Assembly (NCBI GenBank): GCA_030018135.1
Contig: JASEGJ010000010.1
Span: 13,283 to 37,282 of the forward strand
Source of the DNA: Candidatus Hodarchaeaceae archaeon
GTDB lineage: Archaea; Hadarchaeota; Hadarchaeia; Hadarchaeales; Hadarchaeaceae
Direction: 5' to 3'
DNA length: 24,000 bases
In this document: one piece after another, positions 3,291 through 7,922 of the stretch
Position numbering within the stretch: position 1 is the first letter of the stretch
How the letters are laid out: each line of letters opens with the position of its first letter
Program-made: the position numbers and the translations under genes
The notes under the pieces: generated by a model
Told to the model about the DNA's origin: nothing
Databases searched by the model: none
What the model saw: only the letters and a program-made list of their open reading frames with translations

Positions 3291-3425
3291 AGCCCCGTGG
3301 GGTAGACCAGTAAAGCTGGGCCTAATGGTCAGGGTTCAAAGCCCCCATAAAAGCCTTCGGGCCTTTGGAGCCCGTGACCCCGGTTCGAAATCGGCCAGCC
3401 GACGAAGTTCCGGGCGGGGCTACCA
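3291..3425 (+). tRNA. tRNA-Gln (anticodon UUG) with three non-canonical introns and genomically encoded CCA
   Basis: Acceptor AGCCCCG/CGGGGCT (A1-U72), then A and CCA. Anticodon arm CGGGC-CTTTGGA-GCCCG at 3358-3374, anticodon TTG at 3365-3367. T stem CCCGG 3379-3383 / CCGGG 3410-3414. A 73-nt cloverleaf needs removal of about 3306-3325, 3332-3351 and 3390-3408. Confidence 0.8.
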
Positions 3426-3426
3426 T

Positions 3427-3621
3427 TTTTGTTAAGTAGTCTTGAGAAGTCGGATCGCCGAAGGACGTGGGGCAATTATCGCTTTTTAGCCGCTTTATTG
3501 CCTCCTTAAGGGCGTTTTCCGCGACCCGTGAAATGTTCAGGCCCGCATCCTTCGCTTCCTTCAAGATAGCAGGATCAAGGGTGATTGCGGTTATCTGGCG
3601 CTTTCGGTTTGGTCCCTTCAT
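3427..3621 (-). CDS. Candidate int(N): N-terminal ~65-aa fragment of a partitioned SSV-type integrase (alternatively a separate small ribbon-helix-helix-like protein)
   Basis: ORF 3322..3621 starts MKGPNRKRQITAITLDPAILKEAKDAGLNISRVAENALKEAIKRLK. It then reads through the tRNA 3' half as MVAPPGTSSAGRFRTGVTGSKG. That is the same phase as GRIRTGVAGSKG at the N terminus of the recombinase ORF at 5050..5940. Confidence 0.45.
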
Positions 3622-3915
3622 GTATATACACTCCTATGCACTCTCAGCCTCTTCAAGCACTTCTTTCAATCTCCTAGATATAATCCCCTTGATGTTTTCC
3701 ATACTCTGCTCCTCCGCGAGGCGGCAAAGTTGTTCTATTCGCTCAGGAGACAACTTGCGGCCCCGCCCTCGCCTGCTCGATGCTGCACACTATTAAAAAC
3801 CACTTTGCCAACCGAGACAGTGCATCGCCCATATTAAACCACGCGACATAAAAACTCGGCGCGATCTTTTTTTAGATTTTTAAGGAAATAAAAAAAGAGA
3901 GTTTGGGGCCCTAGG

Positions 3916-4392
3916 ATGGACTGGAGAGAATTTCTTCCTGTACATGAGTATAAAGCGTGGGTCGAAGACGCTCGAGATAAATTGGAGGAAGCGAAGAAGG
4001 ATCTAGATGACTTTCCTTTTAGTGCCTTTCAACGGGCCCATGAATCTGCCGAATTTTTATTAAAAGCCGTTTTGGTCCGTGCGGGCAAATTCGGTAGAAA
4101 AAATCGAATCCACCAATTACCACCGCTTCTGGATAAGATAGATCGCGAAAAATGCCTTCCACCCGGAGCGATTACTAAAGCACGAGAAATTGTGCCAGAA
4201 CTCGAGATTATAAATGTGGGCGGCCCGCGACCAGCCCCTACGCATGTCGACTCCATTACATACACAGCCGAGGTTGAATATCCGAAGGCAGGAATGTCTT
4301 CTACCGATCGAATATCAAAGGAAATGGCTGAGGAAAAAATATGTTTGTCACAACAACTGCTTGAATTATTACTTCCTTATTTGGACTGTTAA
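3916..4392 (+). CDS. HEPN-domain protein
   Basis: 158-aa ORF, helical. HEPN-like segment AHESAEFLLKAVL followed by an R-x4-H motif (GRKNRIHQL). AT-rich TATA-like sequence upstream (3870-3895). Confidence 0.7.
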   Translation: MDWREFLPVHEYKAWVEDARDKLEEAKKDLDDFPFSAFQRAHESAEFLLKAVLVRAGKFGRKNRIHQLPPLLDKIDREKCLPPGAITKAREIVPELEIINVGGPRPAPTHVDSITYTAEVEYPKAGMSSTDRISKEMAEEKICLSQQLLELLLPYLDC

Positions 4393-4402
4393 ATTGGCGC
4401 TG

Positions 4403-4687
4403 TTAACTTTTCTTTTTCCTCAACAATCTTCTTATTTGCTCTTCCTGTCTATTGTACCATTTATCAAAGAGCAGATACCCAAAGGGTAAATGAATGCCAA
4501 AGATTCCGAGTCCTCAGAAAATTAGGGGCCAGTGAAACCATATCTTTTCCGGCACAACTACGAGGTTGTAAACTGGAAAAATAACTGCGTTGAAAACCAA
4601 GTATATCACGAGATGGCAAAGGAAACCTTTTTTTGCTTCTCTCTTTTCCACAACTCTTCTCGCTTCTCTGTAATCCTTCACACTCAT
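4403..4687 (-). pseudogene. 2TM-domain small membrane protein interrupted by an in-frame TGA (4514-4516)
   Basis: My translation: MSVKDYREARRVVEKREAKKGFLCHLVIYLVFNAVIFPVYNLVVVPEKIWFHWPLIF-TGA-GLGIFGIHLPFGYLLFDKWYNRQEEQIRRLLRKKKS*. The TGA sits where this family usually has Trp (W-G-x-G-L). Below the ORF-track size cutoff. Confidence 0.5.
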
Positions 4688-4973
4688 TTTTTCACATCCA
4701 TCGGTGTGATATTGCTTCCTTAAAAGGTTGATGGAGGTATTAAGTTAACACCTATGTGAATCGCGAGGTTTTTTATTCATTTCGGTTTTCTCACTATCAC
4801 CTCATCGGTTTTGGGCATGATTGCATACACCTATCCGCGGTCTTTCGCCGCAATATAGTTTTTCGCTCGGGGCCCTCAATCAAACCCACGCGGTCAAAGC
4901 CGCAATTGAATTCCCGAGGTGCCCCTGCCCCTTTTGTTTCTCCCTTTGATGGTTGTGGGAGCATGATATTCAC

Positions 4974-5003
4974 CCGCCTCTCATCGAATAGTTTGAGAGG
5001 CGG
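4974..5003. repeat. Inverted repeat (9-bp stem, 12-nt loop) downstream of the integrase stop
   Basis: CCGCCTCTC (4974-4982) / GAGAGGCGG (4995-5003). Confidence 0.4.
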
Positions 5004-5049
5004 ATCCCTTAAAGCCGAGCGATTCATCATCCTATCAGCACCGTTAAAT

Positions 5050-5940
5050 TTACGAGAGAACTTTTAACCCCGCGCCATCGTATATCCTCTTTAACCGTTC
5101 GGGAGAGAAGTCCGTGTAATGCCTCGCCAGCACGCTCCTCGGAACCCGCCCACAGAAGGCATCGACGTATCTGTCTGCAACGCCCAACTCGCCCATCTCG
5201 GAGCAGAACCAGTCGCGCAAAATCTGGGGCGTGATCTTAACGCCCGATGCCTCGCTCGCCCGCTTGAACCACCTATCAATTCGACTACTCCGCCACGGAA
5301 AGAGCCTTTGGTCGGCGCTCACGTCCCGCCCGTTGAGGTATTCTCTCAGCGCTTGCTCCGCTTCTCGGTTGAAAAATGACGCCCATCTTTTCTTTGTTAT
5401 TGTGCTTGTTACGTTTGGCAGCACCATTCTCTTGTCAAGGTCGATGTCGCCTATCTTGAGCGATGCGACCTCATCTCGCCTAAGCCCCGATGTGGCGAGC
5501 ATCAGGAACACCGCACGTTCAAATGGCCTTTTGAGCGCTTCGTAAAATCGCTTCAACTCTTCCTTGGTCGGCACCCTTTTCGGCTTGAACTCTTGGCGCG
5601 GTAATTTGAACGTCGCCACTATTTCGCCTCTGCCCAAGAAGTCGCGGAAAAATCTTCTAAATGCTTTAAGAATGTTGGCGCGAGTCGAGGCGCTTGAATC
5701 CTTAAAGCCCGCGAGATAATCTCTAATAACATCGGTCGAAACTTCAGCGCCGTTTAACCATCTCAAGAATCGTTTAATTTCACGACAATGATCTTGGGCG
5801 GTGGCCTCGGACAGCGATAGGTCGATCGTGCAAAATTTCTTGAACTTCTCCAAAACATCAGGATCGAACGTTATGCCTTTGGAGCCCGCGACGCCGGTTC
5901 GAATCCGGCCGGGGCTACTAAATTTTAGGAAAAGTCGCAT
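5050..5940 (-). CDS. Tyrosine recombinase/integrase, C-terminal catalytic part (int(C) of an SSV-type partitioned integrase)
   Basis: 296-aa ORF. N-terminal residues SSPGRIRTGVAGSKG are the translated tRNA 3' half. SAM-like core-binding region present. Catalytic-type residues ATSGLRRDE (Arg), ILRDW (the xxR Arg) and C-terminal VLARHYTD (Tyr). The ATG at 5940 lies outside the repeat, so it is probably fortuitous. Confidence 0.85.
   Translation of the reverse strand: MRLFLKFSSPGRIRTGVAGSKGITFDPDVLEKFKKFCTIDLSLSEATAQDHCREIKRFLRWLNGAEVSTDVIRDYLAGFKDSSASTRANILKAFRRFFRDFLGRGEIVATFKLPRQEFKPKRVPTKEELKRFYEALKRPFERAVFLMLATSGLRRDEVASLKIGDIDLDKRMVLPNVTSTITKKRWASFFNREAEQALREYLNGRDVSADQRLFPWRSSRIDRWFKRASEASGVKITPQILRDWFCSEMGELGVADRYVDAFCGRVPRSVLARHYTDFSPERLKRIYDGAGLKVLS
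5875..5917 (+). other. Intron-less partial copy of the tRNA-Gln(UUG) 3' half (right att repeat)
   Basis: GCCTTTGGAGCCCGCGACGCCGGTTCGAATCCGGCCGGGGCTA: anticodon loop to discriminator, canonical T arm GCCGG-TTCGAAT-CCGGC, no 5' half, followed by CTA instead of CCA. Confidence 0.8.
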
Positions 5941-5985
5941 TTTTTTCGCCGCACGTAAGCTTAATATCGGCGATGCGCAAGTAAA

Positions 5986-7501: not shown

Positions 7502-7522
7502 TGGAGGATACTCCTAATCGGT

Positions 7523-7653
7523 AGCCCCGTGGGGTAGACCAGTAAAGCTGGGCCCAATGGTCAATCCTGGCGGACGCTTCACAAGGCCGCAATCTGGATC
7601 CGTCGACCCCGGTTCGAAATCGCCCCGCGACGAAGTTCCGGGCGGGGCTACCA
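7523..7653 (+). tRNA. tRNA-Gln (anticodon CUG) with three non-canonical introns and encoded CCA
   Basis: Same acceptor and D region as the 3291 gene. Anticodon stem GCGGA (7571-7575 region) / TCCGT, anticodon CTG at 7594-7596. T stem CCCGG/CCGGG. A 73-nt cloverleaf needs removal of about 7538-7557, 7576-7592 and 7619-7636. Confidence 0.8.
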
Positions 7654-7661
7654 TTTGATCC

Positions 7662-7922
7662 CTAGACCTCGACCACGATCGCCGTGTTCGTATCGACGAC
7701 GCCCTTGATCTTGTGGATGCCCTCGACAACCGTGTTCGTCAGCTTCGCCAGATCCTTCGCCTCGACGAAGACGACGATATCGTACGGCCCCGTCACGACG
7801 TGCACGGACTTAACTCCGGCCAGGCGCTCGAGTTCCTTCGCGACTTGCCTGACCCTGCCGATTGCCGCGGTCACCAAGATATAAGCCTGTATCACTTGCT
7901 CACCCCGCCAATTCTTTGGCAT
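7662..7922 (-). CDS. Stand-alone Lrp/AsnC-type ligand-binding (RAM) domain protein
   Basis: The ORF is open to 8063, but the RAM-like fold starts at the internal Met (MPKNWRGEQVIQAYILVTAAIGRVRQVAKELERLAGVKSVHVVTGPYDIVVFVEAKD..). The upstream extension overlaps the KH gene. No HTH domain. Confidence 0.7.
   Translation of the reverse strand: MPKNWRGEQVIQAYILVTAAIGRVRQVAKELERLAGVKSVHVVTGPYDIVVFVEAKDLAKLTNTVVEGIHKIKGVVDTNTAIVVEV

Follow-up and report, generated by a model that had tools for sequence, protein, structure and literature searches.

The window analyzed here (G000:C1:13283-37282) is a 24,000-nt stretch of a 1.1-Mb metagenome-assembled genome (MAG) of a subsurface archaeon of the Hadarchaeota, which comprises 45 contigs, has a GC content of 55% and is 93% complete. 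Between positions 3375 and 5888 the window contains an integrated element of 2514 bp (one copy of the attachment core counted), delimited by a direct repeat, by an empty site in a related genome, and by GC content. The element adjoins a chimeric tRNA-Gln(UUG) gene (attL; 3291–3425, plus strand) on its left and carries the two parts of a tyrosine recombinase gene at its ends, both on the minus strand. The first, int(N) (3375–3621), consists of the start codon, a ribbon-helix-helix (RHH) domain, and a linker antisense to the tRNA 3′ half; the second, int(C) (5050–5874), encodes SAM-like core-binding and catalytic domains. It is very likely that this small element's integrase was split by integration into tRNA-Gln(UUG), in the manner of the SSV-type integrases, and that the element decayed afterwards or was a deletion derivative from the start.

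The tRNA-Gln(UUG) gene spans 135 nt, encodes its CCA, and contains approximately three introns. An initial annotation, made from the sequence of the window, had listed it as intact, and this assignment is upheld by its anticodon arm (CGGGC-CTTTGGA-GCCCG), by homologous genes in 37 of 41 related genomes, and by ARAGORN once inserts are removed. Neither ARAGORN nor Rfam (even at E ≤ 1) calls a tRNA in the region as it stands, because the gene carries about 59 nt of non-canonical introns, a type found in many tRNAs of this genome. With the 19-nt T-arm insert and approximately 40 nt of the D region removed, 8443 of 8635 trial splicings yield an ARAGORN call of tRNA-Gln(ttg); the program accepts almost any cut, and these trials leave the borders of the D-region intron unfixed. 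The gene is the only tRNA-Gln(UUG) found in the genome. When introns are allowed, ARAGORN also proposes a "tRNA-Ile with a 2555-nt intron" that joins 3291 to 5918; this call was rejected as spurious.

Attachment repeats and the empty site

Two repeat pairs connect the tRNA gene with the far end of the element: 3361–3396 with 5875–5910 (36 nt, 89% identical) and 3409–3430 with 5904–5925 (22 nt, 82%). Exact identity of the two tRNA copies is limited to their first 14 nt (GCCTTTGGAGCCCG), after which they diverge. In attL this core (3361–3374) comprises the anticodon loop and the 3′ strand of the anticodon stem, and it is the putative region of crossover. At attR a second core copy (5875–5888) opens a 44-nt tRNA-Gln(UUG) 3′ half (5875–5918, plus strand), which corresponds to the partial tRNA-Gln placed at this end by the initial annotation; it lacks an intron, and its encoded CCA now reads CTA. 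The interior had also been described as more AT-rich than the flanks, in agreement with a GC content of 38–46% at 3600–5000 against about 60% in the flanking genes.

An unoccupied tRNA-Gln site, which the initial annotation had proposed to look for in related genomes, is present in G003, the closest syntenic relative. The gene order there is aldehyde:ferredoxin oxidoreductase, tRNA-Gln(UUG), a 74-aa membrane gene, a 228-aa gene, a 150-aa gene, tRNA-Gln(CUG), and AsnC-like and TraB-like genes, and the tRNA-Gln(UUG) gene is followed directly by the 74-aa gene with nothing between them. The aldehyde:ferredoxin oxidoreductase of G003 is 90% identical to that of the window, and neighboring proteins are 58–90% identical, compared with 46–76% for a second relative, G002. 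Positions 5875–5918 match the 3′ half of the native tRNA-Gln(UUG) of G003 at every one of their 44 nt (100% identity), whereas the surrounding DNA is only 69–79% identical. A match at 44 of 44 positions means that the repeat pair does not reflect chance, and its contrast with the surroundings identifies the right-hand copy as the displaced native 3′ half. On these alignments the chimeric gene appears to be of host origin up to 3374, its 3′ part, from 3375 onward, deriving from the element.

The two halves of the integrase

The recombinase ORF (5050–5940, minus strand; 296 aa) begins MRLFLKFSSPGRIRTGVAGSKG, and its ATG (5938–5940) is in host DNA, 20 nt past the end of the displaced tRNA half. 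Between this ATG and the divergent 74-aa gene, at approximately 5966–5974, the sequence is rich in A/T and TATA-like. Catalytic residues of the 296-aa protein are R154, K184, Q239xxR242, R265, and Y275. The Phage_integr_3 family (PF16795) matches with 36.9 bits against a cutoff of 27, PF00589 and SAM-like domains scoring higher. Residues 28–287 align with the whole of archaeal XerA (4a8e, 5hxy), and the same two structures are the best Foldseek matches to the confident model of the homolog P0111.

At the opposite end of the element, a 99-aa ORF (3621→3322, minus strand) continues across the tRNA gene, where it is translated as ...AGRFRTGVTGSKG, and it shares its tRNA phase with the integrase ORF. 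Residues 9–47 (3481–3597, minus strand) form a CcdA-like RHH domain (PF07362, 30.9 bits against a cutoff of 22.4). The match covers positions 2–40 of the 71 in the model, the RHH part only, and the AlphaFold model displays an extended strand-like segment and two helices.

Homologs of the integrase were taken as the 120 best of 1061 for the 296-aa protein. P0048, P0111, and P0113 are single polypeptides in which a CcdA-like RHH domain, a linker, a SAM-like domain, and a catalytic domain succeed one another; P0048 and P0111 score above the Pfam cutoffs for CcdA, SAM-like, and integrase domains. The linker is tRNA antisense in P0111 and P0113, and in P0048 by visual reading only, the motif test not having flagged it. 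P0111 is encoded on contig L017 (ENA ERZ27247977 k141_1108553; 12,370 nt), which comes from an assembly with k = 141 and has identical first and last 141 nt. This terminal overlap identifies the contig as a circular free element of 12.2 kb with an unsplit integrase gene, inside which lies a tRNA 3′-half-like stretch. A tRNA-type peptide is found just before the SAM-like domain in 44 of the 73 integrase homologs with an N-terminal extension of at least 12 aa. A search for more full-length fusions with residues 1–75 of P0048 returned only P0048 itself, in a word-index search that is limited in this respect. The cargo of the circular element comprises an M48 peptidase, an Mrr-like nuclease, DUF6884, DUF2400, AGOG, and a 1330-aa ATPase.

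The split form is represented independently by locus L024, a complete relative in integrated form bounded by a 64-nt direct repeat whose copies are 6289 bp apart. Its Int(C), P0003, lies at one end and is 80% identical to that of the window. At the other end an RHH ORF (64% identical) reads into an intact tRNA (Rfam, 65 bits) in the same phase, and both ORFs translate the repeat as MMAGPPGFEPGPPAPQA. In the window as in L024, int(N) and int(C) thus occupy opposite ends and each overlaps a tRNA copy. Small ORFs, a PrimPol-D5_N primase-helicase, and a TrmB-like gene fill the interior of L024.

The tails of the RHH homologs point the same way. Among the 150 best representatives for the 65-aa RHH part, from a library of 1.84 billion proteins, 75 contain peptide motifs antisense to the tRNA T arm (GFEP, DLNP, IRT, and similar), whereas the background rate is 6.2% of the 50–150-aa ORFs in the genome of the window itself. 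In the tails listed, these motifs lie approximately 15–30 residues after the RHH domain. Sequence comparison therefore suggests that this CcdA-like RHH family largely consists of Int(N) fragments, and a CcdA match does not in that case refute the split. A locus search with the single RHH protein gave one weak locus.

It could still be argued that the small ORF is a gene in its own right, for an RHH antitoxin or regulator, that the recombinase is a classical, pNOB8-type integrase left intact by integration, and that the shared tRNA phase is a coincidence. The ORF does match Pfam CcdA, most of its homologs are small stand-alone ORFs of 50–150 aa, and residues 28–287 of the recombinase already span a whole XerA. 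This explanation is nonetheless improbable. Single-chain RHH-integrase fusions exist, one of them on a circular contig; the RHH and Int(C) parts co-vary with their L024 counterparts; and half of the RHH homologs run into tRNA-antisense peptides. No gene for CcdB or another toxin adjoins the RHH ORF, whose tail is tRNA antisense and whose CcdA match ends at model position 40, and the locus does not qualify as a CcdA/CcdB type II toxin-antitoxin system. Rather than standing intact beside the attachment site, as in the pNOB8 type, the recombinase ORF overlaps attR, and its sole start codon belongs to the host flank rather than to the element. The unsplit homologs have an N-terminal domain that is encoded here 2.2 kb away, at the element's other end. 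The gene is also unlike a XerA resolvase, which is single-copy, chromosomal, and unlinked to mobile elements, in being part of a low-GC insert absent from the syntenic relative. The initial annotation had named two signs that together would speak against a split, an antitoxin match of the small ORF and full-length recombinase homologs starting at residue 1 of the 296-aa protein; the first is seen in the CcdA match, while P0048, P0111, P0113, and L024 contradict the second.

In the AlphaFold model of P0111, ten-residue block means of pLDDT reach roughly 95 or higher across residues 71–345, with few exceptions. The RHH region averages approximately 68. Values are below 50 for residues 44–61, which make up the N-terminal half of the linker, and the block after them has a mean of 56. 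The att-encoded peptide (approximately residues 51–69) lies in this dip, and the attachment site is probably located in a disordered linker. Such a position would plausibly account for the tolerance of tRNA-derived sequence and for the peptides of different tRNAs in close Int(C) relatives.

P0006, P0076, P0020, P0024, P0022, and P0021 belong to the same Int(C) family and carry at least two other N-terminal modules, one HTH-like with a tRNA-antisense linker and one a coiled-coil-like segment that ends ...ERGPPREIK and has no tRNA motif. This suggests that N-terminal modules are swapped among Int(C) proteins. Integrase homologs with E ≤ 1e-20 are present in 4 of the 41 related genomes, this genome itself counted. 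Elsewhere in the source genome, contigs C29 (540–629, minus strand) and C34 (2–151, plus strand) each hold another C-terminal piece of an integrase of this family, with 87% and 74% identity across the final 30–50 residues; both pieces suggest earlier integrations that have decayed or been broken by assembly.

The attachment core and the T-loop intron

In conservative site-specific recombination, the exchange must fall within sequence shared by both partners. Joining the two parts at the 14-nt core (3621→3375 and 5874→5050) gives an uninterrupted frame of 1086 nt (361 codons), of which codons 66–87 are tRNA-like. The attachment site thus lies inside the reading frame of this reconstructed ORF, as it does in the unsplit homologs. 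The int(N)/int(C) split with both ORFs in the same tRNA phase, as first annotated, is borne out by this in-frame join and by the unsplit and split homologs. The accompanying estimate that the site lies about 65 codons into the gene is correct for the start of the tRNA homology, whereas the crossover core is found at codons 83–87. Only a crossover at the core gives an in-frame integrase, and from this we infer the exact crossover position.

If the exchange had instead taken place at the end of the acceptor stem, the whole tRNA gene (3291–3425), its T-arm intron included, would be native, and 5875–5918 would be the att arm of the element. A second short identity block does exist there (GGGGCTAC, 3416–3423 and 5911–5918), and the tRNA-Gln(UUG) 3′ end of G002 has the same intron and adjoins a host gene. 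A gene joined at this block, however, meets a stop at codon 81, and the copy that would have to come from the element is the one identical to the native tRNA of G003. Further evidence comes from L022 (GCA_030602765.1, JAUVZC010000034.1; 7600–8100), another Hadarchaeota assembly, in which an independent integration in the same gene neighborhood has the same core and left boundary. A 76%-identical Int(C) abuts the same 14-nt core, and the tRNA 3′ half beyond the core contains two T-arm introns, the very arrangement of the native tRNA-Gln(UUG) in G006 and G014, members of another genus. Since this copy carries the host lineage's own T-arm introns, what follows the core on its right at attR is host sequence. 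An acceptor-stem crossover is improbable, if anything slightly more so than an independent antitoxin. An assembly or binning artifact, with a foreign contig joined at shared tRNA sequence, is scarcely credible: the genome is a 45-contig MAG and tRNA repeats are typical mis-join sites, but both flanks are syntenic with G003, with the insert exactly between the tRNA and its neighboring gene, the junctions are reciprocal, as site-specific recombination predicts, and the same architecture recurs in the independent assemblies L024 and L022.

The 19-nt intron of the chimeric gene (3390–3408, plus strand) lies in the T loop at position 59/60 and would have been brought by the att arm of the element; the native T arm, both in the displaced copy and in G003, has no intron. 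The region 3379–3414 is laid out as CCCGG / UUCG / [AAA] / UCGG-loop-CCGA / CGAA / [GUU] / CCGGG. Two 3-nt bulges (AAA and GUU) on opposite strands enclose a 4-bp helix (UUCG/CGAA), with the T stem below and a UCGG/CCGA hairpin on top. Of these helices, the minimum-energy fold contains the outer and the top ones; the central 4-bp helix was read by eye. A cut after the second base of each bulge restores the native T loop, TTCGAAT. Judged from this predicted layout, the intron is of the canonical bulge-helix-bulge (BHB) type. In the integrase frame the 19-nt insert encodes TSSAGR, and without it the two halves are out of frame.

The host carries a multi-intron tRNA-Gln(CUG) gene at approximately 7520–7656 (plus strand), also missed by ARAGORN, which has the same 59/60 BHB layout and a further intron beside the anticodon loop. 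The 71-aa ORF that reads through this gene (7514–7729, minus strand) is spurious. The T-loop intron of the tRNA-Gln(CUG) gene shows compensatory changes in the top helix. As this resident tRNA has the same intron layout, the host presumably can splice the new intron, and the chimeric tRNA is presumably spliced and functional.

The tRNA-Gln(UUG) end of G002, which adjoins a host gene, agrees with the 3′ half derived from the element at 52 of 54 positions overall and at 18 of 19 in the intron. It occupies positions 1–54 of contig C28 (locus L006; 96% identical to the element arm), and the contig starts 3 nt before the end of the att core. This break may reflect integrated/empty polymorphism in that population. 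Gene conversion from the genome's own tRNA-Gln(CUG) was considered and rejected, as the intron hairpin differs from that of the paralog, which varies freely among genera, and matches the tRNA-Gln(UUG) of G002. The pattern appears to fit horizontal carriage of the intron by the att arm (PMC3293823).

Proposed origin of the locus and comparison with known systems

The favored course of events starts from a small circular element with a 361-codon tyrosine integrase gene. Its attP, an antisense copy of the tRNA-Gln(UUG) 3′ half, would have been placed inside this gene, in a flexible linker between the RHH domain and the XerA-like core-binding and catalytic module. The exchange between attP and the host tRNA-Gln(UUG), catalyzed by this integrase, would have fallen inside the 14-nt core, in the anticodon arm. 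The tRNA would thereby have been rebuilt from the host 5′ part and the element 3′ part, gaining the BHB intron at 59/60, while the native 3′ half would have been displaced to the far end of the element. The same exchange would have cut the integrase gene into int(N) and int(C), an outcome termed SSV-type or "suicidal." By analogy with the SSV2 integrase, whose N-terminal module controls multimerization (PMC8371274), the obligately dimeric RHH domain may act in multimerization or DNA binding and so aid synapse assembly, and its loss would cripple the enzyme; Int(C) alone is presumably inactive. The element would later have decayed, or may already have been a deletion derivative, and its excision would need a full-length integrase supplied in trans.

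Several observations weigh against this account. The active-site signature is QxxR and not the KxxR of SSV1-type enzymes; the close homologs P0003 and P0006 have KxxR. In phmmer searches the similarity to the SSV1 integrase is marginal (3uxu, catalytic domain, E 0.0096), and the nearest solved structures are those of XerA. Int(C) corresponds to XerA over its full length, and its ORF now starts at an ATG taken from the host; that Int(C) is inactivated is therefore an assumption. The RHH fold is deduced from the Pfam match and secondary structure; in a Foldseek search with the model the top matches were CopG, Arc, CdbA, and VapB, all with E > 1 and none significant, and the fold is not counted as confirmed. 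Exact 33–35-mers across the attP junction had no match in metagenome and viral contig collections, nor did those across the attB junction in metagenome contigs. The window itself comes from a MAG.

The remaining content of the element accords with its description in the initial annotation as decayed or minimal, with only a HEPN gene, a broken 2TM gene, and short ORFs as cargo, a list that Pfam matches and translation support. The HEPN-domain gene (3916–4392, plus strand; 158 aa) has an Rx4H motif (PF05168, 32 bits) and no MNT partner. The 2TM-domain pseudogene (4406–4687, minus strand) is interrupted by a single in-frame TGA at 4514–4516, not by a frameshift; with the TGA read as W, its 94-aa product matches positions 5–76 of the 79 in PF13239. 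PHROGs and PADLOC gave no match to the cargo genes. A 39-aa ORF just upstream of int(N) (3634–3753, minus strand) matches no family and is perhaps not a true gene. In contrast to L024, the element carries no gene for replication; its two integrase halves remain open reading frames. From its gene content the locus is read as a probable decayed deletion derivative, capable of excision only with help in trans.

It is possible, though we rate it just short of an even chance, that the RHH/XerA-like family as a whole carries tRNA 3′ halves and introns in its own linker, overwrites the host 3′ half each time, and so spreads BHB introns between tRNA genes and lineages, with the corollary that hundreds of CcdA-like archaeal ORFs are severed integrase heads. 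At this locus an intron-less T arm would then have been replaced by one with a 59/60 intron almost identical to that of G002, a member of another genus. Independently of that wider reading, the locus provides a before-and-after example for the proposal that mobile elements bring non-canonical introns into archaeal tRNA genes, which was based on a single case in the searchable literature. An attachment site in a predicted disordered linker would explain the tolerance of tRNA sequence, even of an intron, and the switching of tRNA targets. As the severed head is a CcdA-like RHH domain, many small CcdA-matching ORFs beside tRNA genes are probably integrase fragments, and such fragments could mark element boundaries precisely. 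Self-splitting integrases have been ascribed to hyperthermophilic archaea in a 2021 review (PMC8371274), and one thaumarchaeal case of the suicidal design has been reported (PMC6563490). The design can now be placed in the Hadarchaeota, and judging by the homolog lists this integrase family also occurs in metagenomes and in MAGs labeled Bathyarchaeia, Aenigmarchaeota, and others, which would make the mechanism much more widespread than that description implies. The mechanism itself is known; new are the RHH/XerA-like architecture, the assignment of the CcdA-like RHH family largely to Int(N), the host lineage, and a clean instance of intron delivery.

By behavior the locus belongs to the SSV-type class; by sequence its membership is partial, with a PF16795 match above the cutoff, R154, K184, R242, and Y275 of the catalytic set R...KxxR...Y present in a signature that reads QxxR, and XerA as the nearest structures. 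With SSV1 and SSV2 (PMC8371274) it shares attP inside the integrase ORF, the tRNA 3′ part as target, int(N) and int(C) at the two ends, a rebuilt tRNA with a partial direct repeat left behind, and a small severed N-terminal module. It differs from them in its marginal sequence similarity and signature, in the CcdA-like RHH as N-terminal module, in an Int(C) that is a complete XerA-like two-domain recombinase, and in a Hadarchaeota MAG as host instead of the Sulfolobales. PF16795 marks the suicidal SSV, pTN3-like, and pT26-2-like families (PMC8371274). The pT26-2 and pTN3 integrases of Thermococcales, Archaeoglobales, and Methanosarcinales (PMC7253208) resemble the present one, as described, in suicidal design, tRNA targets, PF16795, many remnants, and apparent swapping of N-terminal modules on close Int(C) proteins, here RHH, HTH-like, and coiled-coil. 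In text searches, the terms "ribbon" and "RHH" do not occur in PMC8371274 or PMC7253208, and an RHH Int(N) is not mentioned in the other papers returned.

Archaeal XerA (Pyrococcus abyssi 4a8e, Thermoplasma acidophilum 5hxy) is the best match by both sequence and fold, with the same core-binding and catalytic domains, but acts in chromosomal dimer resolution at dif and has no N-terminal RHH, internal att site, or link to tRNA genes or mobile elements. With CcdA/CopG-type antitoxins and repressors the head shares an N-terminal strand-helix-helix module for DNA binding and dimerization; here, however, it has no toxin partner or C-terminal toxin-binding region, and in free elements it is fused to an integrase. 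The nearest parallel for the intron is the 1.9-kb insertion at tRNA-Thr(GGU) of Caldiarchaeum subterraneum (Sugahara et al. 2012, PMC3293823), likewise a very small recombinase insert between a tRNA and a tRNA fragment, in which the rebuilt tRNA gains a BHB intron from an intron-containing attP (a model restated in PMC8371274). That element was judged pNOB8-like, its recombinase does not overlap the tRNA, and its intron lies in the 5′ half (24/25); here the intron lies at 59/60, inside the integrase frame, and a cross-genus empty site shows the prior state.

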